This document shows, in pieces, positions 7,911 through 64,000 of a stretch of 64,000 bases of DNA. The stretch lies in NCBI RefSeq assembly GCF_058153355.1, contig NZ_CM177019.1, one strand, 5' to 3'. Within the stretch, counting starts at the first letter, position 1, and every line of letters begins with the position of its first letter. The translations under genes and the position numbers were made by a program. The notes under the pieces were generated by a model. The model searched no databases. It was given only the letters and a program-made list of their open reading frames with translations, and had not been told where the DNA came from.

Positions 7911-9904
7911 GATAACTTCCTGTTAATTACGCAATCCGGGTTAGCCGTCAGACTTCCGGTATTACCGTTGATTTCGAAACCCTGAACCTGGCGCATTTGT
8001 GAGAAATGATTTGCCAACGACCAGGCATCAACGCCCATCGCATACATGCGAGCCAGCGAATAATCGTTATTCACCGCACTGAGCGCCTGCTGCATTAATG
8101 GCAGATTACCGCCTGCCAGCATCGGGATTTCGCTATATTGCAAACCTTCCATTTCCAGACGGAAATCCGGACCCGCGGTGCCTTGTGCGCTTCGGGAGCT
8201 GGCGTACAGCGTTGCACCGCTCTGGCTACCGTTACGCATGGCGATCATCGGTTTGATAAAAGCGATTTCGCCCGGCGTTGCCACAATGTACACCGCATCG
8301 ACACGGCCGCCATTATTGGTGAACTGGTCATCGGTTGGCGTGGTTTGCAGCGTTGGATTGTTGGTCGTTATGCCTGAGTCGGTTGTCGCTCTGGGAGTAA
8401 TCGGGCTACCGGTTAAAGCGATACCAGAACCACCGTTAACACCCGCGCGTAATTCGCTGGTGGAACCAAATTTTTGTTGCAAAACGGTGCCGCCACCCAG
8501 TTTCTGCCACTCTTGCGCAAACGCATTGGCTACGCGATCGCCCAATGAACTGCGTGGGATCAGCACCAGCGGCGCTTGTTTACCCTGGTCACGAATATGA
8601 CGCGCTGCATCGCGCGCTTCGTCTTCCGGTGAAAGCGCGAAGTAACAAATATTGACGCGGTTTTCGATATTTTCTGGCTGGTTCAGTGCCAGCACGTTCA
8701 GCGGGGTGTTGCTTTTCAGTAACTCTTCAACGTTATTTTTCAGCAACGGACCGACCACAATACTCGCGCCATCCTGCTGAACCTGGTTGAGGATCTGGCT
8801 AAGCGGTTGTGATGAGGTATCATAAATTTTCAGCTCTGCGGATGGATTCGCGGGGGCGCTTACCGCCGCAGTGCTTGCCGCCGGGGCGCTTACAGGCACT
8901 GGTTGAGCCGCGGTTTCTTCGCCTGTCAGATCGCTAACCGAGGCTTGTGCCGGGCTGGCAACGCCATCCACGGTTTGCGGCTGAGGTTGTTCTGCTACGT
9001 CTGCGGCAGGTGCGGCAGCTACCTGAGCCGCCACTGGCTGAGTGCCGATATTTTTTGCCGCTTCAAAGCCTTGCTGAATAGTGCGACCAAATACCGCTGC
9101 CTGGCCATTCAGTGGCAACAGCAGGGCGATTTTGTTGGTCGATGCGGGTTTAAATGCTTTTACGTTTACCAACTGCGTAGGCAGCATTTTCGCGCCCGGG
9201 TTGTTCGGATAACGTTTCTGCCAGTCGGCGATCCCAGCTTTCATCATGTCGGGATCGTTACGGTTATCAAACCAGATGCGCTGCAGATCAAGCCAGCCTT
9301 GCAGAATATTTTCGTCGGCGTTGATCACCAGCGTATTCGCCTGGTCCTGAGTCATGGAGGAGAGTGCCTGCCATGTAGCATCAATATTCTGTTGCTTTTC
9401 TTTCGCGCCGAGCAGGGGTTCCTGAGCAATTAAGGCGCGCAGTAAATCAATGGAAGGACGCCCCTGGCTGGCATCGATTTTTGCCTGCCAGTAACGCGCT
9501 TGCTGGTTTTGTTCTAAATCTGCAGGTGTGATTTTCGCCAGCAAGTTTTGCGCGCCAGCAAAATCTTTCTGCGCCAGCTTAATTTCTACTGCCAGAAGAG
9601 TTTTCTCGCGACGCTGGTAATCGTTCAGTTCCTGCGGCAGTTGGTTAAACAGCTCCACCGCCTGCCCGGTTTTACCTTCTTTCACCAGTGTACGAATGGC
9701 GAGTAATTGCCAGTTGATCCTGGTATCATCAGCGCTTTGCTGCATCTGCTGAAGATAAAAGGCAGAATCAGCCTGCGCCGTGCCCTGCATATAAGCAGTG
9801 GACTGATCGGGAGTATGGGTGCCACAACCGGCGAAAATCAGGGCTGCCAGAACAACAGGCAGACAACGCGCGGCTTTCAAACGAGAAAATGTTGAGGGTA
9901 CCAT
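7868..9904 (-). CDS. lpoA: Outer-membrane lipoprotein LpoA, activator of PBP1A
   Basis: ORF 7868-9934; start at [10 protein letters not shown], lipobox LIFAGC, TPR-like N-terminus. Confidence 0.9.
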
Positions 9905-15989: not shown

Positions 15990-16110
15990 TTTGCTTGCCT
16001 TTCGTTTCATTTCACTTGGTGATTCGTTTCGTTGATTAAAATCTATAGAAAAGAAATCGAAAGTTAAATGGGGAAAAAAGAAATAAAACGAAATTTGTGA
16101 TCGTTGAAAG
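15990..16110 (-). promoter_or_regulatory. agaS promoter region with AgaR operator-like TTTCGTTTCATTTC motifs
   Basis: tttcgtttcatttcac (16003-16018), ttcgtttcgttg, and complement of gaaataaaacgaaa match the recalled AgaR operator consensus. Confidence 0.5.
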
Positions 16111-16294
16111 AAAAGACAAGGGAAGATTAAAGGATTGCGTGATGACGTCGCTATGTGTACCGATTGCTGGAAGCGGCGTACCGTAGAGCGGATAAGACGC
16201 GCCAGCGTCGCATTCGACACCACTGCACAGATTAAAACGAAAGAAAAAGAAAGGCCTTACGGGGGAAGTGAAGGCCCAATAAAGGAGCAAACCA

Positions 16295-20030: not shown

Positions 20031-21311
20031 TTATTGGCCTTCACAGGCTGTGTGGTACTGCGCCAGGATGTCCTGAATATGGTTGATAATGAGTTCCCGT
20101 GGTGTTGGCTGCAGCTCGCCGGAGCGAACTTTCACGTACTGCAGCGGCAAATACTGGCTGATGAGCGGTAGCGGAATTGGTGCATCCGCCAGATTACGAA
20201 CCAGATGAGCGAAAGCGTCATCAATCTGGCTGTCCGGCCAGTAATAGCGCACGCGATCCGAGTAGCTATAACCACGCGCCAGACGACGCGCGTTGCCGTC
20301 ACCGTGGTAGTGGCTTTGCCAGTATTCCGGGCGGTCGAGCATCACGTTTTCCAGCACCTGACGCAGACCGGAACAGGCTTTCGCTGGCACCAGTTCTTCT
20401 TCAATCGCCGCCAGAGAGAACAGAGCTTCACGCAGGGCGAAGGTCAGCGCCGGACCAACTTTCAGAATGGCAAAGTGGTCAATCACCAGCTGGCGCAGCG
20501 ATTGCGGCGTTTGGTAATCGGTAGAGTGCGCTTCGAAAATCAGCGTTTCGTAGTTTTCGACCATCTGGCTTAAGGCGGTCGCTTTAGCTGGCTGATAATC
20601 AATAACGTTGGTGTGATCGAATTCGACGCCGGGTTGTACCACCAGAGCAATGATGCGTGGCCAGATGGCATTCAGACCTTGCTTTTCAAAGGCGTGACGA
20701 TGGGCTTCCAGCGTGGCGCGGGCGGCATCCGGCGTGGTGACCGCCAGCTCGCTTAAGGTTTCATGCGCGCCGCCAGGTACCGGCACTTCGGTACCAATGA
20801 CATAGACCAGATCGGCTTCGCCAAAGTGTTCACGACAGGTTTCTTCCGCGACTTTAGCCAGTCGGGCGGCGCGTTCAGCCACGATGTCATCGGTTAAGGG
20901 AACCGGATCGTCCTGACAGGACATGCTGCAATCAAGGTGAATTTTTTTGAATCCTGCCGCCACGTAGCTTTTAATCAAATCATCGGCATTGGCCATCGCC
21001 TGAGCTGCAGGCAGGTTTTGCCAGCGGTTTGGCCCCAGATGATCACCACCCAAAATCAACGCATCCTGTGGGAAATTCAATGAGTCGGCGAGCTGACAAA
21101 CAAAGCCGCGAAAATCGGCGGGTGTCATTCCGGTATAACCGCCGAACTGGTCCACCTGATTGGATGTCGCTTCAATCAGTAACGGTGTTTGGTTTGCACT
21201 GGCGTAGCGGATTGCAGCTTCCAGCACCAGCGGGTGTGCGGAACAAACGGCATAAATCCCATTTGTTTTGCCCTTTTTGTGCTGCCTCACCATTTCTGTC
21301 AGATGTTTCAC
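20031..21311 (-). CDS. kbaZ: Tagatose-bisphosphate aldolase subunit KbaZ
   Basis: ORF 20031-21377; probable GTG start giving [15 protein letters not shown]..., ~426 aa. Confidence 0.85.
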
Positions 21312-21559
21312 TTTCCTCTCCAGTTCAGATTGCTGCGATATTAATCTTTCGTTTTGTTTCAGTTGATACTGCGTCATGGTGAGATAAAAATAAAACGAAA
21401 GATAATAGTTTTCTGATCTGATTCACAAAAGAAACATAATGAAAGTCTCTAAAACGAGAGTAGCTTGCGGCTGGGGGCAATGTGGGCTTGCATTTGCTTA
21501 ATAGAAAGGCGTTAATAGGCAAAACGAAATGAAACGAAAGTTTTACGAAAGGACTTACT
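21312..21559. promoter_or_regulatory. Divergent kbaZ / agaR promoter region with AgaR operator-like repeats
   Basis: Complements of aaaataaaacgaaag and gcaaaacgaaatgaaacgaaag give TTTCGTTTYATTTY-type motifs. Confidence 0.6.
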
Positions 21560-22369
21560 ATGAGTAATACCGACGCTTCAGGCGAGAAGCGAGTGACAGG
21601 CACCAGCGAGCGACGAGAACAAATCATTCAGCGCCTGCGACAGCAAGGGAGTGTGCAGGTTAACGATCTGTCGGCATTGTATGGCGTATCTACTGTGACG
21701 ATCCGCAACGATCTGGCGTTTCTGGAAAAGCAGGGGATCGCTGTGCGGGCCTATGGCGGCGCGTTGATCTGCGATAGCACGACGCCGTCAGTCGAGCCAT
21801 CAGTGGAAGATAAAAGCGCGCTGAACACTGCGATGAAATGCAGCGTTGCGAAAGCTGCCGTTGAGTTGATTCAGCCAGGTCATCGGGTGATCCTCGATTC
21901 CGGGACCACCACGTTTGAGATTGCTCGTCTGATGCGCAAGCACACTGACGTAATTGCGATGACCAATGGTATGAACGTAGCCAATGCACTGCTGGAAGCA
22001 GAAGGCGTTGAACTTCTTATGACCGGCGGGCATCTGCGGCGTCAGTCGCAATCTTTTTACGGCGATCAGGCTGAACAATCGCTGCAAAATTACCACTTCG
22101 ATATGCTGTTTCTTGGTGTAGATGCGATCGATCTGGAGCGCGGTGTCAGCACGCATAATGAAGATGAAGCCCGTTTAAACCGTCGGATGTGCGAAGTTGC
22201 GGAACGGATCATCGTGGTCACCGATTCCAGTAAGTTCAACCGTTCCAGTTTACATAAGATCATTGATACTCAACGTATCGACATGATCATTGTTGATGAA
22301 GGCATTCCTGCGGATAGTCTGGAAGGACTGCGAAAGGCTGGGGTTGAAGTGATTCTGGTCGGGGAGTGA
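21560..22369 (+). CDS. agaR: DeoR-family repressor AgaR
   Basis: 269 aa, N-terminal HTH plus DeoR C-terminal sugar-binding domain. Confidence 0.9.
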
Positions 22370-22901
22370 GAAATGGTGCCCGTAGCTCAACACGGATGTG
22401 TTCGGCGGGCATTGTTCACTGTCCTTTTACAGCCTGTTTTCTGCTCAAATTAGAAGCTTCAGCAAAGGTAATGCAAATGCATTATTAACAGCAGAAAGCG
22501 CCAGAACCAACGAAAAAAGAGAGCATGTTTCCCATTTTGCGAGGCGCTTTCCAAATCACCCGCTCAGTCCCCTCGCGTTGCAGTGCTAAAAGCACTATTT
22601 TGCAAATTTGTGACCTTCTTCACTCTCCCAAAAGGCGGTGATCTCACGGTGGGGATCCACTTTCTGCTTTCGCTTTTCTGCCGTTAGCACTCGCTATTTC
22701 GGCATCTCTTCTTTTCACTTTTTCAGTTTGTCATTTTCATTTGCGGTCAACCGAAAGTTCTGGAGTCGATTTTTCCAGGTTTCAACGCCGTTGTCGCGTT
22801 CACAAATTCACTTCTTTTCTTCTGATGTAATGCATTCAAAAGAAAATGAAAGCTGCAAAATGCAAGAATGCAACTAAATACTTTTTCAGGGAGCGATAAA
22901 C

Positions 22902-23672
22902 ATGCTAGATAGCCTAAGACGCCGCGAACAAATCATTGATTTGTTATGTGCCCAGGGAAGCGTACGCGTTGAGCCGCTCAGCATCCATTTTGGTGTCTCA
23001 TCGGTCACGATCCGCAATGACTTACGGTATCTGGAGCAAAAAGGTTGCGTCATGCGTTCCTATGGCGGTGCCGTGTTGAATCAACACTTTGCGCTCGACA
23101 GACCCTTGCAGGATAAAGATCGCCTTAATCGTGATGTTAAAGTGCGAATTGCCGAAAAAGCGGCCAGTTTTGTCAAAGATGGCGATACATTAATTATCGA
23201 TTCTGGTTCAACGACCACGCTAATTCCCGCTTCGCTCAAAGGGCGTCGGGATTTAGTCGTCATGACGAATGCCTTGAATATCGCCTGGGAAATGGCCAGT
23301 TTTGAACGGGTGGATGTTATGATCCTTGGTGGAAATGTTCGCCAGAGCGTCTACTCCCTGTATGGGCCTTCGGCAGAACAACAACTCCGGCAGTATCGCT
23401 TTGATAAGCTGTTTCTGGGCGTGGACGGCTTTTGCCTTGAAGCAGGGATTACCACGCCACATCCGGGTGAGGCACATCTGAACCAGGTGATGTGCCAGGT
23501 TGCGCAGGAAATTACTGTTGTCGCGGACTCCAGTAAATTTGGCCGCAAAAGCTTCTGTATGATCGGTGAAGTGAGCGAGATAGATCGACTGATTACCGAT
23601 AGCGGTATTCCGGAGAATTACAAAGCAGCATTAACGCAAATGGGTGTGGAAGTTGTGATTGCTGATGAGTGA
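22902..23672 (+). CDS. DeoR-family transcriptional regulator, AgaR paralogue (accessory)
   Basis: 256 aa; N-terminus RREQIIDLLCAQGSVRVEPLSIHFGVSSVTIRNDLRYLEQKG parallels AgaR; good RBS (GGGAG). Confidence 0.85.
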   Translation: MLDSLRRREQIIDLLCAQGSVRVEPLSIHFGVSSVTIRNDLRYLEQKGCVMRSYGGAVLNQHFALDRPLQDKDRLNRDVKVRIAEKAASFVKDGDTLIIDSGSTTTLIPASLKGRRDLVVMTNALNIAWEMASFERVDVMILGGNVRQSVYSLYGPSAEQQLRQYRFDKLFLGVDGFCLEAGITTPHPGEAHLNQVMCQVAQEITVVADSSKFGRKSFCMIGEVSEIDRLITDSGIPENYKAALTQMGVEVVIADE

Positions 23673-23676
23673 GAAA

Positions 23677-23708
23677 ATGTGGCTGGAGATAAACGTCGCC
23701 AGCCACAT
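23677..23708. terminator. Hairpin between convergent DeoR regulator and ROK kinase genes
   Basis: tgtggctgg...ccagccaca inverted repeat. Confidence 0.4.
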
Positions 23709-23716
23709 TACGTTAT

Positions 23717-24628
23717 TCAGGTTGCATGTTCGATTTGCAGCAACGCCGCGCCTCGTACACCGCTCGTTGCTCCGTGAATGGCAGAAAATACGCGCGCAGG
23801 TTCCAGTCCAGGAAGAAGATAACGCGTCATAGCTTTCGGCAATAACGTGTAAATTTCTTTGAAGTTAGACACACCGCCGCCAAGAACAAATGCATCTACG
23901 TCGAGAATATGCTGCAACTGTGCCAGCGTACAACCAACCATATCTATCCAGGCGCTAATGGTGGTGATGGCACTGGGAACGCCACGTTGATGATTTTCTA
24001 ACAATGTCTCCATAGTGATTTGCTCATCGCTGAAATGCTTATGTAACCAGAGCAAGCCAGGACCGGACTGGTAGCGTTCCAGGCACCCTTGCAAACCGCA
24101 GCCGCATTGTAATTCAGGCAGGTTATAGCGCCGCGTAAATGTCGCCGGGAGCGGTAAATGGCCAAACTCGCAGGCCATACGGTTACGGCCACGGTACAAC
24201 TGGCCATCAATAACTAATCCCCCGCCCATACCCGTGCCGATAATCGCGCCAAAGATCCGACTATATTGACGAGCTTGATCGGTATGCGCTTCTGATAGGG
24301 CGAAGCAGCAGCAGTCATTATCCATTATTACCGGGCGGTTAAGGCGATTTGCCAGATCGGTTAACACCTGGCGTCCGGTCAGGCAGGGAACGTTAGAAGA
24401 CAACAGTTTACCGGTGTGCCGATCCATAACGCCGGGCATCCCGATACCTATTTTGCCTTGCGTACCCGTGGCCCAGTCAGCGGTATCAATCAGAGACACA
24501 AATGTGGATAGAAAAAGCGCGTAATCCTGAACAGGCGTAGCTACCCGCTTGCGCCAGCAAATTTGTAAATCCTGATCAAAGGCGACTATCTCTGTTTTGG
24601 TTCCACCAATATCAACACCGTAAAACAT
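23717..24628 (-). CDS. ROK-family sugar kinase, NagK-like
   Basis: 303 aa; DIGGTK N-terminus and CGCG..C zinc motif as in N-acetylglucosamine kinase. Confidence 0.85.
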   Translation of the reverse strand: MFYGVDIGGTKTEIVAFDQDLQICWRKRVATPVQDYALFLSTFVSLIDTADWATGTQGKIGIGMPGVMDRHTGKLLSSNVPCLTGRQVLTDLANRLNRPVIMDNDCCCFALSEAHTDQARQYSRIFGAIIGTGMGGGLVIDGQLYRGRNRMACEFGHLPLPATFTRRYNLPELQCGCGLQGCLERYQSGPGLLWLHKHFSDEQITMETLLENHQRGVPSAITTISAWIDMVGCTLAQLQHILDVDAFVLGGGVSNFKEIYTLLPKAMTRYLLPGLEPARVFSAIHGATSGVRGAALLQIEHAT

Positions 24629-24646
24629 CGCTCATCTCCTTTGGTT

Positions 24647-25903
24647 TCACAGCACAACCAGGGTATTTTCCTTGCGAGCGCGTTCGGCGGCAAAGACCAT
24701 TAAATGACTTTCGAGCGATTCATCTGGTCCTGAAAGGATCATCGCTCGATCGTCAGCCATCACGGCATGGATAAAGCTGTCCATCAGATAGTAATCACCA
24801 CCACCGTGCCCTCCCATTTGGGTGTGAGTGCCTGCGTTTTTCTCTTCAACGGTGTAAATAGTTTCCTGGTCGGTGAGAAAATCAAAACACCGAATGGTGT
24901 TGCCATCGCCTTCCAGATAACCTTTCGAACCGAAAACTCGGGTTTTGCGATCCTCCATTTTCGTAAAGGCTGTCATTGTAAAAGTGACGCTCTGCTGATG
25001 CGCAAACTGCATGTTTACCACTTGATGATCAACAACATCGTTATCGCAGCAATAAACACAGCGACCATAGGGGCCGTCACGCAGGGCCTGACGAATATTC
25101 TCTTCAGTAGGATTTGGTGTTAACACGTGGCGAAAGTGAAACGTACATTTATGGGCTTCGCCAGCATAAATTTTGCATGCGGACCACGGGCAGGTCGCTT
25201 CTGCCTGGCAATCGAGACAGCGTTCGGCTGCGCCTTCAGGTTGGTTTTGTTTTACAAAATGGTTGAGCCCGCCAAATGAGCTAACGGTTTTACAGTTGTC
25301 TCCCATGATGTAGCGGATCCAGTCCAGATCGTGGCAGGACTTTTGTAACAACATAAATGATGATTCAGCCTCGTTGCGCCAGTTACCACGCACAAAAGAG
25401 TGTGCCTGGTGCCAGTAACCGACGGGTTCGAGATGCTGCATACTGATAATGTCGCCAATGATGCCGCTATCGAGTAAGAATTTGAGTTTTTGTGTATATC
25501 GGGTGTAACGAAGAACGTGTGCGACGGCTAATAAGACATTATTGCGTTTGACGGCATCAATGATAATGCGGCAATCGTGCTCTGTTGGCGCGAGCGGTTT
25601 TTCCAACAGAATGTGGTAACCGAGATCGGCAAAAGCGACGGCCGGATCTCTATGCATATTGTCTTGCGTACAAATAAGTACAGCATCAGCCATTTTTGGC
25701 CGAGCAGCAGCCTCTTTCCAGTTGCTAAAAATATTATCTGTCGGGATCGTATGCCGGGACACAACTTGCTCGCGGTAAGCCTCTCTAGGTTCAGCAACAC
25801 CTACCACTTGCATTCTGTCCGGATGCTCAAGGGCATAGCGGGAATATATTTCTCCACGTGCGCCTGCACCTATTACTAAAACAGTGACTTTATTTTTACT
25901 CAT
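24647..25903 (-). CDS. Gfo/Idh/MocA-family NAD(P)-dependent oxidoreductase with Cys-rich insert
   Basis: 418 aa; Rossmann N-terminus (VLVIGAGARG), EKP motif, Cys cluster CLDCQAEATCPWSACK...CVYCC. Confidence 0.8.
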   Translation of the reverse strand: MSKNKVTVLVIGAGARGEIYSRYALEHPDRMQVVGVAEPREAYREQVVSRHTIPTDNIFSNWKEAAARPKMADAVLICTQDNMHRDPAVAFADLGYHILLEKPLAPTEHDCRIIIDAVKRNNVLLAVAHVLRYTRYTQKLKFLLDSGIIGDIISMQHLEPVGYWHQAHSFVRGNWRNEAESSFMLLQKSCHDLDWIRYIMGDNCKTVSSFGGLNHFVKQNQPEGAAERCLDCQAEATCPWSACKIYAGEAHKCTFHFRHVLTPNPTEENIRQALRDGPYGRCVYCCDNDVVDHQVVNMQFAHQQSVTFTMTAFTKMEDRKTRVFGSKGYLEGDGNTIRCFDFLTDQETIYTVEEKNAGTHTQMGGHGGGDYYLMDSFIHAVMADDRAMILSGPDESLESHLMVFAAERARKENTLVVL

Positions 25904-25945
25904 ATAAAGAAATACCTTTCTGATAAATTCATCTTAATTGCTACG

Positions 25946-26704
25946 TTATAAATTACGAAAACTAACAAGATGAAATCCGTGTTTTTCAATCGCATATTTG
26001 AGTGACGGTGTAGTCAGAACCGTAAGTTCTTCCAGCCGTTGATAGCAGTAACTGCTCGACATTAAGTGGTTATCTACGAATCCAGGGTGACACATAATTT
26101 CCAGCGATTTTTCATCACGTTTTATGGCGCTATCGAGGAGTGATAAAAAAAAGTCTTCTGAAATATTATTATCGTAGAAATTACTGCTGAATCCCTCACT
26201 ACTTTTGGCATCCAGCGAATCGATTTTTTTCTCTCGCAGAACAGAATGGTCTATACGTAATGGTAAATTTTTCTCACGCGCGAACCGCGCGACAACGGGA
26301 TAAACCTGCGGGATCATATGAACGCTGTGATGGCTGTCTAAATGGGTGGGCTCCCGTTTAAATACATCAATAAAACGTTGATATTGAGAACTCAGTTCCT
26401 GTTCAATTTCACCCGTGTTTAATTGCCCTTGCTCCGCGACATCCCAGATCCATTTACCTAATTGGCCTGCGCGTACCAGCGAAGGCATATCCGTTAAGGC
26501 GGCGCCATAGCTCAAAACAAAATGTAACCCGACGCCGAGCTGTGGGGTTTCGGCACTTAAAGAGGCAGCATGATCAATTGCCGGAGCATTCATCATCGCA
26601 GTTGTTGAGCGAACGACACCATTTCGTACTGCCTCGATAATTCCATAATTAATACCTTTACTTAGTCCAAAGTCATCCGCATTCACAATTAATAAGCGTT
26701 GCAT
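25946..26704 (-). CDS. YdjC-family carbohydrate deacetylase (ChbG-like)
   Basis: 252 aa; NADDFG and HLDSHHxVH motifs. Confidence 0.85.
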   Translation of the reverse strand: MQRLLIVNADDFGLSKGINYGIIEAVRNGVVRSTTAMMNAPAIDHAASLSAETPQLGVGLHFVLSYGAALTDMPSLVRAGQLGKWIWDVAEQGQLNTGEIEQELSSQYQRFIDVFKREPTHLDSHHSVHMIPQVYPVVARFAREKNLPLRIDHSVLREKKIDSLDAKSSEGFSSNFYDNNISEDFFLSLLDSAIKRDEKSLEIMCHPGFVDNHLMSSSYCYQRLEELTVLTTPSLKYAIEKHGFHLVSFRNL

Positions 26705-26716
26705 AAGGCGTCCTTG

Positions 26717-28069
26717 TTATTGATGAGATTGGGTAAGTTCAGCAATGGTGCTGGAAAATTGAGGCAGATGTTTTTTATGGGCAATGATCAGTTCACGTAC
26801 TAATTTTTCAGCGTCGTTATCCGAGGTCATTAGCGGGTTAAGGCACAGAGCCAGCAGCGTATCGTTATAGTTACCACTTATTGCCGCCCGGGCTGCCGCA
26901 ATCTCAAAACATTTGATTGAATGAATGAGCCCCAGTACATTTTCGTCAAAATGAGTGAGACGCGGGTGGGGGGTAACACCGTTATTCCCCAGAATGCAGG
27001 TCATTTCAACGGTCCAGTCTTCAGGGATATTTTTTACACTGCCCTTGTGTGGAATATTAACGTAGTGTTCTGTTTGCGTGTCATTATAAATTGCATTAAT
27101 AACGGCACAGGCTGCATCTGAATAATACGCACCACCACGCAGATCCAGTTCTTCAGGTTTTGTATTTAGTTCTGGGTTCTTATACAGCTCAAATAATTTT
27201 CTCTCTAATGCCTGCACGACTTGTGCACGAACGCCATTTTTATAAAATTCCCCCATCTCAATAGCGAGCATTTCTTTATGTTTAAAATAGTAACGTAAGT
27301 AAGCACAGGGCAGGAGATTAAGTGCCCGAATTAAATTAGGATTGAAGGTTAAACTGTCAATATTTTTGACGGTACTTCCTTCAAGCAAACCTTCAACGAC
27401 GCCATCGAGCAATTCAGCAAAACGTGATTGTCCATTGACCCATACGTCTTTAAGAAAGACCATATGATTTAAGCCAAATATGTCTATTGAAAGATCATCG
27501 TCCGCGCCAAGTTTTAGGGCATTGCGAACGAAGCTCTTCATCCCAATAGGGACATTACAGACACCGATAAACCGTTTAAATTGGGTATGGCGGTACACGG
27601 CTTCAGTAACCATCCCGGCAGGATTGGTAAAATTAATAATCCAGGCATCAGGGCAAAGTTCCTCAACATCTTTGATAATATCAAAAACTACTGGAATGGT
27701 TCGTAACCCGTTGAATAAACCGCCCGCGCCATTGGTTTCTTGCCCGAGATATCCCTGACTTAGTGGAATCAACTCATCCATTTCCCGAGCTTTTAATTGC
27801 CCGACCCGAAATTGTGTGGTGACAAAGTGCGCGCCCTGTAATGCAGCGCGACGGTCAAGTGTTTTCACTATTTTTAACGGAATGCCAGCTTTTATCACCA
27901 TCCGCTGACAAAGGTCGAAAATAATGTCCAGCTTTTCTTTGCCTTCTTCAATATCAACTAACCATAATTCACTGACCGGTAATTCATCGTAGCGTTTTAT
28001 GAATCCTTCAAGGAGTTCTGGTGTATAGCTACTGCCACCGCCAATAGTAACGATTTTTAAGTTTTTCAT
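26717..28069 (-). CDS. Glycoside hydrolase family 4 6-phospho-beta-glucosidase (ChbF-like)
   Basis: 450 aa; strong similarity to ChbF by recall (IGGGSSYTPELLEGFIKRY, NFTNPAGMVTEA). Confidence 0.9.
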   Translation of the reverse strand: MKNLKIVTIGGGSSYTPELLEGFIKRYDELPVSELWLVDIEEGKEKLDIIFDLCQRMVIKAGIPLKIVKTLDRRAALQGAHFVTTQFRVGQLKAREMDELIPLSQGYLGQETNGAGGLFNGLRTIPVVFDIIKDVEELCPDAWIINFTNPAGMVTEAVYRHTQFKRFIGVCNVPIGMKSFVRNALKLGADDDLSIDIFGLNHMVFLKDVWVNGQSRFAELLDGVVEGLLEGSTVKNIDSLTFNPNLIRALNLLPCAYLRYYFKHKEMLAIEMGEFYKNGVRAQVVQALERKLFELYKNPELNTKPEELDLRGGAYYSDAACAVINAIYNDTQTEHYVNIPHKGSVKNIPEDWTVEMTCILGNNGVTPHPRLTHFDENVLGLIHSIKCFEIAAARAAISGNYNDTLLALCLNPLMTSDNDAEKLVRELIIAHKKHLPQFSSTIAELTQSHQ

Positions 28070-28145
28070 GTTACTTCCATACTCAATATTAAATTGACTT
28101 GTGATGCCATGGTTTATCTAAACGCTGGCATGATGAAGCGTGCTA

Positions 28146-29506
28146 TTAAAACTTTAATGCATTGGCAATGTCTTCTTCGCTTTCTTGTTTAATTATTTCA
28201 ACTTGTGCTTTGTTTGAGATAATGACAAAGGGAAGATAAACCATTGTGGCAACACCTAAGTTAAAGAGCGCCAGGAGTAATCCAGCAATGCTTCCATTCG
28301 AGCTAAAGAACGCATTGAGTCCAGGAGGCATGGTCCAGGGGGCAATATTTGTTGATGGCGGAATAATACCCATGTTATAGGCGATTAAGGTAATCCCGGC
28401 GAGAATGGGTTGAATCATCACAAACGGGATTAACATAATGGGGTTCATAATGATCGGCAAACCAAATAAAATAGGTTCGTTGATATTAAAGATACCAGAA
28501 GGTAACGCTAATTTAGCAACCTGACGATAATCTTCCCGGCGTGACGCAATGAAAATGGCGAAAATGAGTCCCAGCGTTGCCCCTGTTCCACCGAGGAACA
28601 CGTAAGCGTCAAGCATTGGCCCGGTCCAGAAATGGAAGGTTTTTCCTGCTTCCAGTGCCGCTTGTACTGAACCATATTGTGTATAGGTGGCGATATTCTC
28701 CAGTCCCCACGGACCCAACGTGCTGCTTTGCAACGCGGTTAATACTAAGCCGCCGTGGATACCAAAGAACCATAACAGGGAATTAAAGACAACGAATGTC
28801 CAGCCAACAATACCGCTCATTGACGTTAATGGCGTAGCCAGTGAGGTGATAATGACCTGATGGAAATTGGTGCCATATATCGACAATATCCCAGACAAAC
28901 TACCCATAATTAACAGGATGATAAACCCGGGCACCATTGCTGAGAATGAGCGTGATACTGCGGCCGGAACACTCGCGGGCAACCGAATCACCCAGTTGCG
29001 GCGGATAATAAAAGCGAAAATTTCCGCTACAACTAATCCAATGATCATACCAGACAGAATATTGGCGCCGCCTAACCAGTTTGCACCAATGACATTAGCG
29101 GTTTCTCCTGCCTTGAAGGGGGTGACAGTCATAAACGCTGCGACAGAGAGTAAGCCAACGGATAACGAATCAACTTTCCGTTCTTCGGCCAACCCCATCC
29201 CAATAAAAAAGGGGGTCATGAGTGACATAATGCCCAGCGTGCCATGATAAGCACTGTCACCGACGACGGTGAAGGCGCTTAAGGTTTTTATGGTCGATGG
29301 TTCCAGTCGGACGCCTAATGAATAAAAAAGGAGCCTTCGCCAAAATCTAAAAAAACGCTATTAATGAGGACAAATAACGTACCGGCTAACGTTAATGGCA
29401 TCATACGGATAAAACCGTTTTTTATTGCATTGACGTGAGGTTGTTTCCCTAATTTAACTGCAAAAGGAAGAATGAGTTTTTCAAGTAACGCCATCACTCC
29501 GGGCAT
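28146..29506 (-). pseudogene. PTS lactose/cellobiose-family EIIC (ChbC-like) split by a frameshift
   Basis: N-terminal 63 aa (29506-29315, ...[12 protein letters not shown]) and C-terminal 360 aa (from 29228) are in different frames; the second frame reads FYSLGVRLE... upstream to the junction. Confidence 0.75.
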
Positions 29507-29575
29507 AAAAATATCCTTATATACCGATTAATGTATCACTGCGACTTTGGTTTTATTAATATCCTGTTGCTATGG

Positions 29576-29893
29576 TTACTTTTGCTCTTTTTTTATTATG
29601 GCGATAGCTGATTTTAGAACACCTAAGCCATCAATTTTTCCATATAACATTGAATCAATAACTTCCACTGGCTTTCCTGGTAATAAGCTTTGGATCTCTG
29701 ATTGCATGTAAGCAATTTGAGGTCCCAATAATATAACATCGGCTTCCGGCCCTTTCTCTGCGGCAACAGATTCGGAGAATGCTTCGATAATTACTGGCAC
29801 ATCATATTTTATCGCCTGCACTTTCATTTTTGACACCAGCAGTGATGTTGACATTCCCGCTGAACAAAATAAGTATATTTTTTTCTTTTCCAT
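29576..29893 (-). CDS. PTS lactose/cellobiose-family EIIB (ChbB-like)
   Basis: ORF 29576-30109; start at [20 protein letters not shown] (phospho-Cys motif), ~105 aa. Confidence 0.85.
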
Positions 29894-30278
29894 AGGGACT
29901 CCAGATATATTACGTAATAATATATTTGTCATGCCATGAATGGCATATGAGGCGACTTTAATTAAAAAGGCACGGATGTTTATATTGATTTCCTGAATGT
30001 CGTCTTTTGGTATTAATCTCAAAAATTTCAGGAGCCATTGAATAATCTGGTTTATAGGATTGAATGTCAAGAGAGTGAAATTGTGGGCGTGTTGTAATAA
30101 AAATAGCACGGCTTTCGGTAGGTTTCTTTTTTAGCGGAATGAAAAGTACAGGCAAAATGGTAATTGAATAAATTAACGTTTTTTCAATAGATTACGTTTT
30201 TTCCTGCCTACAGGAATGAAAAAAACAACAATCTAAAAATACTTTAGATATGTGAGAGTTATCACTTACTTTTCGTGG

Positions 30279-30311
30279 GGAAAACGGGGAAACACAGTCT
30301 CCCCGTTTTCC
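30279..30311 (-). terminator. Stem-loop immediately downstream of garD
   Basis: ggaaaacgggga / tccccgttttcc perfect 12 bp inverted repeat. Confidence 0.4.
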
Positions 30312-30326
30312 GTTCATGCAAGGCCG

Positions 30327-58739: not shown

Positions 58740-59402
58740 TTACCCCCGATTTCCATATTTCTTTTTCCATAACACGACCAGAGAACCTGCCAGGCCAAAC
58801 ACCAGCAGCACCACCGGGAGCAGCATCAGGCATGACATCAGCTGGTCCTCGTACTTTAAAAATACCGGCGTTTTGCCGAGCATGTAACCCAGAGTTGTCA
58901 GGATTAATACCCACAGCAGACCGCTCATCCAGTTGAAGAACTGAAAGCGCGCGTTATTCAGCCCTGATAACCCGGCAATCGTCGGCAGCAGTGTTCTGAC
59001 AAACGCAATAAAGCGACCAATTAACAGCGCCGATAAACCGTGTTTATGAAAAAGATGGTGTGCGCGTTGATGATAATGCGCGGGTAAATGAGATAGCCAG
59101 TTTTGTACGGTGCGGGTATTGCCCAGCCATCGCCCCTGAATATAGCTGACCCAGCAGCCGAGGCTGGCGGCAACGGTCAGTAGCAGAATCGTTTGCGGAT
59201 AGCCCATCGCGCCTTTCGCAATCAATACGCCGACCAACACCAGTAAACTGTCGCCCGGTAAAAAGGCCGCCGGAAGCAAGCCGTTTTCAAGGAACAAAAT
59301 TACAAATAAAACAAAATAGAGCATGCCAATCATCGACGGATTGGCCAGGGTTTCAAAATCCTGCGCCCACAGGGCTTGCAGCAATTGGGTCAAAAGTTCC
59401 AT
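58740..59402 (-). CDS. yqjA: DedA-family inner-membrane protein YqjA
   Basis: 220 aa DedA/SNARE-associated family. Confidence 0.9.
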
Positions 59403-62147: not shown

Positions 62148-64000
62148 ATGGATAAAAAACTACTGGCTCTTTTGATCCTGGCGAGTATCAGCCCGGCAAA
62201 GGCAACATTAACAAAAATCCCCGCTGGTTTCGAGATTATTGCTCAAGGACAGCAGGAGTATATCGAGGTTTATTTTGCAGGGAAAAGTCTCGGTAAATAC
62301 TATGCAATGGTTAATCTTGATACCATAACATTTCTGGACTCATCGAGTTTATACAGTAAACTGGAATTGAACACCGACGATCAAAAAATCGCACGTACAG
62401 TGAAAGAAAAACTATCGCAACCGTTAGCTCGCCATGGTGAACTGGCTTGTGGCTTTGTACGTACTGATTCAGGCTGTGGTTTTCTTAATACTGAGACGGT
62501 AGAAATAATCTTCAATGATGAGGAAAGTTCAGCAACGCTCTTTCTCAATCCGCAATGGAGTTCTGCGTTTGATACGAAATCATTGTATTTAAATCCTGAC
62601 AAAAATACGGTTAACGCGTTTATACATCAGCAAGATATTAATGTGCTGGTACAGGACGATTACCAATCGTTGTCAATTCAAGGTAATGGTGCGCAGGGAA
62701 TAACAGAAAATAGTTATATTGGCGCCCACTGGAATTTCAACGGTTATGATGGTGATGATATCAGTGACAGTAATGCTGATGTCAGCGATCTCTATTATCG
62801 CTACGATTTTTTACGTCGTTATTATGTGCAGGCGGGGCGGATGGACAACCGCACATTATTTAATGCACAAGGTGGTAACTTTACGTTTAACTTTCTGCCA
62901 CTCGGTGCAATCGACGGAATGCGTATCGGGTCGACGCTCAGTTATTTAAACCAGACGCAAAGCCAGCAGGGAACCCCGGTAATGGTTTTGCTTTCGCGCA
63001 ATTCACGTGTTGATGCTTATCGTAATGAACAACTTTTGGGGTCGTTTTACCTCAATAGCGGTTCGCAATTTATTGATACCAATTCCTTTCCGCCAGGCAG
63101 TTACAGCGTGGCGTTAAAAGTCTATGAAAATAACCAACTCACCCGCACTGAGCTCGTGCCATTTACCAAAACCGGCGGTCTGACAGACGGAAATGCCCAG
63201 TGGTTTTTACAGGCGGGGAAAACCACATCTCAAGCTTCTGATGATGAAAGTTCGGCTTATCAGCTGGGTGTGCGCCTGCCATTACATCCGCAATATGAGC
63301 TCTATGCAGGGCTGGCGAATGCAGATGATGTTAGTGCCTTCGAGTTAGGCAATAACTGGACAGCAGATTTAGGCGTGGCAGGGAATCTACTCATCAACGC
63401 CAGCGTGTTCCGTAACGATGATGGTGGCAAAGGTGATATGCAACAGGCTAACTGGAGTCAATCGGGATGGCCGACATTGGGCTTTTATCGTACCAACTCT
63501 GATGGTGATGTTTGTACAACCGACAACCGAGAAAGCTACAACGCCTTAAGCTGTTATGAAAGCATCTCCGCGACGATTTCACAGAATCTTGTAGGCTGGA
63601 ACATGATGCTGGGTTATACCCGTACGCAAAATAACACGAATGACAATCTGCGTTGGGACAAACAGCAGAGCTTTGAAAATAACTATCTTCGCCAGACGAC
63701 GGCGCAAAGTATTTCCGAAACTTTACAACTCAGTGCTTCCCGCGCTTTCGTGATGCGTGACTGGATTTTGAGTACTACTGTTGGTGTTTTCCATCGTAAT
63801 GACAATGGGGATGATAACGACGATAACGGCTTGTACTTATCGTTTTCGTTATCTGATACGCCAACGATGGATAGCAATAACAACAGCTATTTAACCAATG
63901 TTTCTACTGACTATCGTTATAGCGATCAGGATGGCGATCAAACGTCATGGCAGTTATCTCATACCTTTTATAACGACTCATTCAGCCATAAAGAGCTTGG
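62148..64000 (+). CDS. Fimbrial outer-membrane usher (class 5-like), N-terminal ~617 codons; continues past window end
   Basis: Long open frame from ATG 62148 to window edge (MDKKLLALLILASISPAKA signal), N/D/Y/G-rich beta-barrel-like sequence. Confidence 0.65.
   Translation, partial: MDKKLLALLILASISPAKATLTKIPAGFEIIAQGQQEYIEVYFAGKSLGKYYAMVNLDTITFLDSSSLYSKLELNTDDQKIARTVKEKLSQPLARHGELACGFVRTDSGCGFLNTETVEIIFNDEESSATLFLNPQWSSAFDTKSLYLNPDKNTVNAFIHQQDINVLVQDDYQSLSIQGNGAQGITENSYIGAHWNFNGYDGDDISDSNADVSDLYYRYDFLRRYYVQAGRMDNRTLFNAQGGNFTFNFLPLGAIDGMRIGSTLSYLNQTQSQQGTPVMVLLSRNSRVDAYRNEQLLGSFYLNSGSQFIDTNSFPPGSYSVALKVYENNQLTRTELVPFTKTGGLTDGNAQWFLQAGKTTSQASDDESSAYQLGVRLPLHPQYELYAGLANADDVSAFELGNNWTADLGVAGNLLINASVFRNDDGGKGDMQQANWSQSGWPTLGFYRTNSDGDVCTTDNRESYNALSCYESISATISQNLVGWNMMLGYTRTQNNTNDNLRWDKQQSFENNYLRQTTAQSISETLQLSASRAFVMRDWILSTTVGVFHRNDNGDDNDDNGLYLSFSLSDTPTMDSNNNSYLTNVSTDYRYSDQDGDQTSWQLSHTFYNDSFSHKEL

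Follow-up and report, generated by a model that had tools for sequence, protein, structure and literature searches.

The 64,000-nucleotide stretch of contig NZ_CM177019.1 (RefSeq assembly GCF_058153355.1) analyzed here, referred to below as the window, carries two genes for DeoR-type regulators in succession: agaR (21560-22369, plus strand), at the edge of the aga cluster, and after it a second gene, here named REG, that borders an island of different sugar genes. This arrangement raises the question of which protein acts on the DNA in front of REG, and whether the operators found there belong to the family used by the Aga regulon. A first-pass annotation of the sequence had suggested as much, proposing that the island regulator shares its N-terminal helix-turn-helix (HTH) region with AgaR and that T-rich repeats upstream of it resemble AgaR operators. 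The results described below indicate, with a probability that we put at roughly 0.72, that positions 22600-22901 constitute the autoregulated promoter/operator region of REG, a predicted second AgaR-type repressor that would recognize the same family of boxes as is found in the AgaR operators.

The relationship between the two regulators was examined at the level of protein families. Pfam models assigned an HTH_DeoR domain to residues 7-61 of REG (5e-17) and a DeoRC domain to residues 76-234 (7e-52). With the NCBIfam AgaR equivalog model NF040755, REG scored 365.3 bits against a cut-off of 260, and its Photorhabdus orthologue scored 393.6 bits. The model specific for E. coli AgaR, PRK09802, returned 271.5 bits for REG against a cut-off of 351, and REG and the resident AgaR are 44% identical over 252 residues. 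Given the shortfall with PRK09802 and this level of identity, these comparisons indicate that REG is a paralogue or xenologue of E. coli K-12 AgaR and not the same orthologue; the RefSeq name of the identical protein is "transcriptional repressor AgaR." The proposed likeness of the HTH regions was confirmed, in that the pattern VTIRNDL..LE..G occurs in the recognition helix of both regulators. Alignment of the two clades revealed that the first half of this helix is the same in each (VS[T/S]VTIRNDL) and that fixed differences occur immediately after it (AF vs RY) and in the wing. The sole PDB match for REG was a DeoR C-terminal domain, and no solved structure with a DNA-bound HTH domain was matched. 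No truncation affects the REG reading frame, and a second strain carries a 100% identical one.

To locate candidate operators, the window was searched with the pattern TTTCRTTTYRTTTY, which we take to be the E. coli AgaR consensus of published work. At no more than one mismatch, this pattern had 10 matches in the window against 0.95 expected. Seven of these lie in the agaS and kbaZ/agaR promoters, the boxes clustering ahead of agaS and in the kbaZ/agaR intergenic region, and one is the box termed O1, which lies upstream of REG (Table 1). A matrix was then trained on 20 aga-promoter sites and used to score 127,954 window positions. O1 scored 15.4 bits, the ninth highest value and the best outside the aga promoters, for which the sites ranged from 16.8 to 31 bits (16.8-19.8 bits for the weakest). 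The core of O1 at 22838-22851 on the minus strand, TTTCATTTTCTTTT, differs from the AgaR consensus at one position. The box as a whole comprises two GAAAG-type half-sites that are 10 bp apart, and it is predicted to cover approximately +1 to +16 of the transcript. The hexamer CTTTCG by itself was discarded as a signal, as it is too common in the window (66 occurrences vs 40 expected). Two further matches to the AgaR matrix outside the aga and island regions, at 63623-63646 (14.8 bits) and at 59298-59321 on the minus strand (12.5 bits), are probably due to chance.

The two T-rich strings on which the first-pass annotation had relied are present, at 22660-22678 and 22711-22744, but as E. coli AgaR operators they could not be sustained: neither matches the AgaR consensus at up to two mismatches, and with the AgaR matrix they score ∼2 bits, whereas shuffled copies of the region reach a best score of 5.6 bits on average. 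They therefore fall short of shuffled sequence, the yardstick that the annotation had set for its own refutation. By contrast, O1 exceeds shuffled sequence, albeit modestly, and this best AgaR-like box, the decisive operator of the region, is one that had not been cited.

The strong evidence came from comparison with orthologous loci, which settled the matter. A scan of species-representative genomes yielded 26 loci with REG relatives of 74-93% identity, from Escherichia sp., Citrobacter, Enterobacteriaceae RIT691, Hafnia, Edaphovirga and Photorhabdus, and 13 upstream regions representing six genera were aligned. Invariant positions were observed at the distal CRP-like site, O3, O2a, O2b, the -35 block, the sequence TGnTGTAAT and O1, with no conservation between these blocks. 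The spacings are near-fixed across the genera. O2a and O2b are separated by 17-18 bp and O2b and O1 by 94-96 bp, and in all sequences the -35 block lies 25 bp from the -10 element, which in turn lies 13 bp from O1. The O3-O2b spacing takes values of 85, 95-97 or 109-110 bp, near whole helical turns, and the distal CRP-like site is held at 58-59 bp from O3 in the six genera even though the intervening sequence is not conserved. In an unbiased count of conserved 6-mers, CGAAAG/CTTTCG ranked first, at 14 times background and in all six genus groups, and TGTAAT and the CRP half-sites came next.

Individual elements could be resolved in the same alignment. Within O1, GAAAG (22848-22852) is invariant in the 13 sequences and forms part of the conserved block AAAG.A.A..GAAAGC (22839-22853). 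O1 starts 5 bp after TGnTGTAAT, which was identified as a predicted extended -10 from its conservation and not from a promoter scan; its TG (22823-22824) and its TGTAAT positions are invariant or nearly so. At O3, the conserved block is GCTTTCG (22666-22672), of which TTTCG (22668-22672) is invariant in the six genera, and at the distal CRP-like site both TGTGA and TCA are invariant (TGTGA-N6-TCA, 22609-22622). O2a is degenerate in the window and matches the matrices poorly there, but it aligns with TTTCGTTTTGTTTC of Photorhabdus, a perfect AgaR consensus that scores up to 24 bits; within the window, it is 92% complementary to O1. Of the quoted T-rich strings, the first contains the invariant GCTTTCG of O3 and the second ends in the conserved TTTC box of O2a, although the second is largely degenerate here.

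Table 1. Coordinates of the elements upstream of REG, of those ahead of the island catabolic operon and of the reference AgaR operators in the window
Feature	Position	Strand	Sequence or basis
REG	22902..23672	+	256-aa AgaR-family, DeoR-type repressor (predicted)
Shine-Dalgarno sequence of REG (GGAG)	22887..22892	+	Read in sequence; GGAG conserved in orthologue alignment
O1, proximal operator (predicted)	22836..22853	-	TCAAAAGAAAATGAAAGC; minus-strand reading GCTTTCATTTTCTTTTGA
Extended -10 (predicted), TGaTGTAAT	22823..22831	+	Conservation
-35-region conserved block	22800..22810	+	TCACAAATTCA; CACAA and TTC invariant; TCACAA.TTC at 22800-22809
O2b, inverted CGAAAG box	22750..22758	-	CGAAAG 22752-22757; GAAA 22753-22756 invariant in six genera
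O2a	22731..22743	+	TCATTTTCATTTG; end of second quoted string; TTTC 22735-22738 conserved
O3, distal operator box (predicted)	22665..22678	+	TGCTTTCGCTTTTC; core of first quoted string
Distal CRP-like site	22609..22624		TGTGACCTTCTTCACT; one mismatch to TGTGA-N6-TCACA
AgaR-type box pair, island catabolic operon	30108..30145	-	Operon-strand reading TTTTCATTCCGCTAAAAAAGAAACCTACCGAAAG
Operon promoter (predicted), TTGACA-17 nt-GATTAT	30042..30070	-	Read from sequence
CRP-like site, island operon	30251..30266		One mismatch; GTGAT...TC.CA conserved
Reference AgaR operators, kbaZ/agaR intergenic	21342-21365, 21382-21405, 21426-21449, 21516-21544		Consensus and both matrices
Reference AgaR operators, upstream of agaS	15995-16018, 16044-16067, 16075-16098, 16224-16257		Consensus and both matrices

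Whether the boxes of the two systems form one family was addressed by reciprocal matrix tests. Matches to the AgaR consensus and matrix were found upstream of REG in every orthologue, and at the Photorhabdus, Hafnia and Edaphovirga loci they occurred almost nowhere else. Over all the compared loci, consensus matches that did not fall in aga promoters were nearly confined to the DNA preceding REG. A second matrix was trained on 51 unique boxes taken from non-Escherichia REG orthologues only (consensus GCTTTCGTTTTATTT). When this matrix was applied to the 64-kb window, the six best matches all fell within the kbaZ/agaR and agaS promoters, and O3 and O1 followed. O3 scored 15.1 bits (rank 7 in the whole window), compared with 2.1 bits for the same box with the E. 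coli AgaR matrix, and O1 scored 14.6 bits. For the aga promoters, the scores of the REG-trained matrix were reached in 0 of 1000 and 7 of 1000 shuffles, which is decisive. Given that recognition is reciprocal, with the AgaR matrix finding the REG boxes and the REG-trained matrix the aga promoters, an operator family common to the Aga regulon and the island regulator is supported, and the first-pass annotation is borne out on this point. The presence of aga-type CTTTCG boxes in the REG promoter would follow from the nature of REG as a second AgaR-type repressor.

These observations can be explained by the following minimal model. REG would be transcribed from the extended -10, with a start near 22838, and the REG protein would bind the CTTTCG/GAAAG boxes, repressing its own gene at O1 over the predicted start. 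O2a and O2b (22731-22758), together with O3, would be auxiliary sites at which an oligomeric repressor binds cooperatively or forms a loop, as other members of the DeoR family do; the preserved helical spacing suggests this. The distal CRP-like site would tie expression to catabolite control. REG would also repress the catabolic operon of the island through the box pair at 30108-30145, and a sugar-phosphate effector would lift the repression. What the sequences show is that REG belongs to the AgaR family, that the motifs are present, conserved and regularly spaced, and that each matrix recognizes the boxes of the other system; we infer where transcription starts, which protein binds, and the parts played by repression, looping and an effector.

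Several observations weigh against this model. In the REG upstream region, the best score of the AgaR matrix was reached by 44 of 2000 dinucleotide shuffles and that of the REG-trained matrix by 45 of 1000, and three or more sites of the latter were obtained in 20 of 1000; because the region is T/C-rich, the support that the window alone lends to the REG boxes is modest (p ∼0.02-0.045). In this genome neither O2a nor O2b scores above 7.8 bits, a weak value that was obtained for O2b as a 20-mer. A simple scan upstream of REG found no canonical sigma-70 promoter, the -10 element being missed on account of its poor -35, and the start near 22838 is a prediction only. The distal CRP-like site is centered at approximately -221.5 relative to this start, which fits no class I or class II distance. 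On the operon side, the box pair does not reach significance when the window is taken by itself (124 of 2000 and 371 of 1000 shuffles). A frameshift in the gene for component IIC of a phosphotransferase system (PTS) suggests that this strain may be losing the island through decay. Finally, an E. coli-type AgaR, if carried by Photorhabdus or Hafnia, could be the true binder in those organisms.

The alternative that survives best is that the boxes are also, or mainly, bound in vivo by the resident AgaR, in which case the island would belong to the Aga regulon by cross-regulation and REG might in turn act at the kbaZ/agaS promoters. Cross-regulation of this kind between AgaR and REG is plausible on the sequences, but as an account of the region it is a tentative proposition, well short of an even chance. 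It draws on the identical first half of the recognition helix in both clades and on O1, whose single mismatch to the AgaR consensus and score of 15.4 bits place it just under the weakest aga sites. Moreover, the REG-derived matrix scores the aga operators above the boxes of REG itself, and O1 is closer to the AgaR consensus where the two regulators coexist (Escherichia and Citrobacter) than in Photorhabdus and Hafnia. Set against this, the fixed AF vs RY difference and the differences in the wing could insulate the two proteins, as is often the case for co-resident paralogues, and the REG boxes keep CTTTC cores at a 10-bp spacing, whereas the middle TTTY repeat of the E. coli AgaR sites is often lost.

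A bolder proposal, which we consider somewhat less probable again, is that the two tandem AgaR-type repressors and their one operator family make up a single cross-wired regulon in which a glycoside product of the island feeds the Aga pathway. AgaR and REG would then bind or compete at each other's promoters, and induction of the island and the aga genes would be coordinated. Under such a scheme, the island would import and trim an amino-sugar glycoside, and one promoter/operator module would be reused ahead of interchangeable transporter cassettes, namely PTS/GH4/ChbG here and an ABC transporter in Citrobacter.

It is doubtful, though less so than the explanations that follow, that the region is an inherited relic of an aga-operon promoter that has been decaying since REG came to lie beside unrelated genes and that has little or no function here. 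The degeneracy of O2a and O2b relative to the perfect-consensus O2a of Photorhabdus would be expected of such a relic, as would the frameshift in PTS IIC within the window, the truncation of REG in Citrobacter sp. Res13 and the rarity of the island, which 3 of 5426 complete E. coli genomes carry. Yet O1, O3, the -10 element and the CRP-like site are intact, the spacings differ from those of other genera by no more than 1 bp, the REG frame is full length with an identical copy in another strain, and Escherichia and Citrobacter share an unchanged operon-side box.

That a different sugar regulator, of the NagC/Mlc or ChbR type, binds the boxes on behalf of chb-like genes in the island is very improbable. 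The island does encode chb-like PTS IIB and IIC components, a ChbG-like deacetylase and a NagK-like ROK kinase, and homologues of these genes in the chb operon elsewhere are under NagC/ChbR control. However, the conserved motif is a CTTTCG repeat of the AgaR type, the island encodes no such regulator, and the conservation of the upstream region in Photorhabdus and Hafnia, which lack chb-like genes at the locus, argues against this explanation. Least probable of all is that the T-rich strings are chance low-complexity AT-rich sequence or terminator T-tracts with no operator role. In favor of this reading, 2-4.5% of shuffles attain the best matrix score, the quoted strings score low with the AgaR matrix, O3 of Citrobacter directly follows a GC-rich hairpin and could be a terminator tail, and in the window O3 is preceded by a weak hairpin (22648-22661). 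Against it, six genera keep invariant box cores at fixed spacing amid unalignable flanks, O3 is retained in Photorhabdus and Hafnia although no gene upstream of it there runs in the same direction and would require a terminator, and the reciprocal matrix recognizes the aga promoters.

The interpretation of the region as an autoregulated REG promoter can be set beside several known systems. The aga regulon of E. coli and its repressor AgaR were reportedly described by Ray and Larson in Mol Microbiol in 2004. The REG system, on its predicted side, resembles that of E. coli AgaR in having a DeoR-family repressor, several TTTC-repeat operators per promoter, regulation of the regulator's own gene and CRP sites in the same regulatory regions, and the VTIRNDL core and the CTTTCG box core are identical in the two. 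It differs in that REG is only 44% identical to AgaR and falls below the PRK09802 cut-off, in that its boxes keep 10-bp-spaced CTTTC cores in place of three consecutive 5-bp repeats, and in that the operon beside REG is not aga but one of PTS IIB/IIC, GH4, ChbG-like, Gfo/Idh/MocA and ROK genes. DeoR and GlpR of E. coli repress through multiple operators. Likewise, the REG boxes are dispersed over ∼200 bp with spacings near whole helical turns; their sequence is different, and looping and an oligomeric state are only proposed for REG.

The closest counterpart is found in Photorhabdus, Hafnia and Edaphovirga, where the REG orthologue (75-78% identity) heads an aga operon with the order agaR-kbaZ-agaS-agaV-agaW-agaE-agaF-kbaY. 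In Photorhabdus luminescens, the orthologue is named agaR, the operon is described as agaR-agaZSVCD/plu0838/gatY, and the agaR-agaZ fragment corresponds to a promoter induced in insects (PMC2422844); the same operon is present in Hafnia and Edaphovirga. The regulator and its upstream region are orthologous to those in the window, with the same boxes, -10 element and spacings. In those genera, however, the regulator gene and the aga genes form one transcription unit, and the promoter of the regulator is therefore the operon promoter, whereas REG is a lone gene that converges on a different operon. A further difference is that the perfect-consensus O2a and a complete proximal CRP site of Photorhabdus are both degenerate here. 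The streptococcal regulators AgaR, AgaR1 and AgaR2 (PMC4694137, PMC5018945) share with REG the name and a link to the N-acetylgalactosamine (GalNAc) pathway, but they belong to the GntR/HutC family, recognize even palindromes and are unrelated to REG and its boxes.

AgaR, its TTTC-repeat operators, autoregulation and an AgaR-like annotation of REG are thus already known. What the present comparison adds is a conserved operator/promoter architecture for a rare island regulator and evidence for two AgaR clades that would read one box family. If the model is correct, a regulator and its operators can be assigned to a rare, uncharacterized sugar island beside the aga cluster, and the locus offers a natural test of whether co-resident paralogous repressors with near-identical recognition helices use one operator family jointly or divide it between them. 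The practical gain is modest: chiefly, the annotation would improve, REG being an AgaR-clade paralogue and not AgaR itself, the half-site model would be refined to CTTTCG cores ∼10 bp apart, and a small set of sites would be defined for binding and reporter work.

Turning to the island catabolic operon, the AgaR-type box pair scored 12.3 bits with the AgaR matrix at 30108-30131. In the right arm of the pair, GAAACCTACCGAAAG, no position varies between the window, Escherichia sp. and three Citrobacter loci, where scores of 14.9-15.8 bits were obtained. The predicted TTGACA-17-GATTAT promoter is kept upstream of the ABC-transporter cassette in Citrobacter and Escherichia sp.; in these organisms REG also directly follows agaR and is accompanied by the ROK and Gfo genes, with the ABC-transporter cassette replacing the PTS/GH4/ChbG genes. 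The promoter/operator/CRP region as a whole (30010-30326, minus strand) stands before a PTS IIB-IIC/GH4/ChbG cassette in the window and before an ABC-transporter cassette in Citrobacter and Escherichia sp. MOD1-EC7003. On this side, homology to Citrobacter and Escherichia sp. stops ∼25 bp past the -10 element, while the REG-ROK-Gfo core is constant; the position at which homology ends indicates that one cassette was exchanged for another downstream of a regulatory module that stayed conserved.

In Citrobacter sp. Res13, the REG orthologue (locus 9001-9767) is interrupted, with a stop at 111 aa and the remainder in another frame, and O1 is nevertheless a perfect AgaR consensus (TTTCGTTTTGTTTT). 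A T-rich box at 22709-22725 of the window, CTTTTCACTTTTTCAG, is common only to Escherichia, Citrobacter and RIT691 (in Citrobacter Res13, for example, it reads CCTTTCATTTTTTCG). It corresponds to the first half of the second quoted string and scores weakly here, and it may represent an extra clade-specific operator.

The gene order of the locus is as follows. The aga cluster lies on the minus strand, with kbaZ at 20031-21377, and agaR and REG follow on the plus strand. Located 3' of REG on the minus strand are genes for a NagK-like ROK kinase, a Gfo/Idh/MocA oxidoreductase, a ChbG-like deacetylase, a GH4 6-phospho-glycosidase and chb-like PTS IIC and IIB components, and these are followed by garD. 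REG thus adjoins the aga cluster, yet the operon linked to it belongs to a different sugar island, unlike the orthologues of Photorhabdus and Hafnia, which sit with aga genes. A GH109-type alpha-N-acetylgalactosaminidase in the island would have provided a GalNAc link, but this assignment was not supported for the Gfo/Idh/MocA protein; its PDB sequence matches were YjhC and sugar dehydrogenases, and Pfam returned GFO_IDH_MocA domains only. The PTS IIC gene (28146-29506, minus strand, chbC-like) has a 1-base deletion in an A-run at ∼29324, with A7 here and A8 in strain R32_14_1F, that results in a frameshift. The island transporter of this genome may therefore be a pseudogene; alternatively, the frameshift may be a homopolymer sequencing error.

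The first-pass annotation had treated ∼530 bp upstream of REG as one regulatory region. Operator-like boxes do occur there, but the 532 bp are composite and only 413 bases (22489-22901) are island DNA. The remainder consists of agaR-distal DNA (22370-22404) and an 84-bp remnant of the prlF promoter (22405-22488). The island, at 22489-30326, stands in place of 72 bp of the typical E. coli genome and is rare, its REG-upstream segment being found at a coverage of at least 80% in the 3 of 5426 complete genomes mentioned above. An open reading frame of 79 aa at 22638-22877 was rejected as coding, as the orthologous regions contain many insertions and deletions of lengths not divisible by three, and conservation is confined to the short boxes. 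A search of 22300-23000 for structured RNA gave no Rfam match at E ≤1. Relative to E. coli GF4-3, an 800-bp yhaV-prlF toxin-antitoxin pair is precisely absent, with an 11-bp overlap at the junction (22405-22415). No strong terminator was found between agaR and REG, only weak hairpins at 22582-22596 and 22648-22661. With yhaV-prlF lost, agaR and REG are co-directional without a strong terminator between them, and read-through from agaR into REG is conceivable.

The pattern TGTGA-N6-TCACA at no more than one mismatch has five matches in the 64 kb, including the distal site upstream of REG; three of the five fall in aga and island regulatory regions (22609-22624, 30251-30266 and 21412-21427). A second, CRP-dependent promoter below the distal site was considered and rejected, as the sequences between this site and O3 in eight genomes contain no -10 at a class I or class II distance. 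Where the REG orthologue heads the aga operon, in Hafnia, Photorhabdus and Edaphovirga, the -35 region takes the form of a complete CRP-like site, TGTAA-N6-TCACA, centered at approximately -41.5. We infer the CRP reading of the -35-region block from these sequences; in Escherichia and Citrobacter, the TCACA half alone survives of the proximal CRP-like site.

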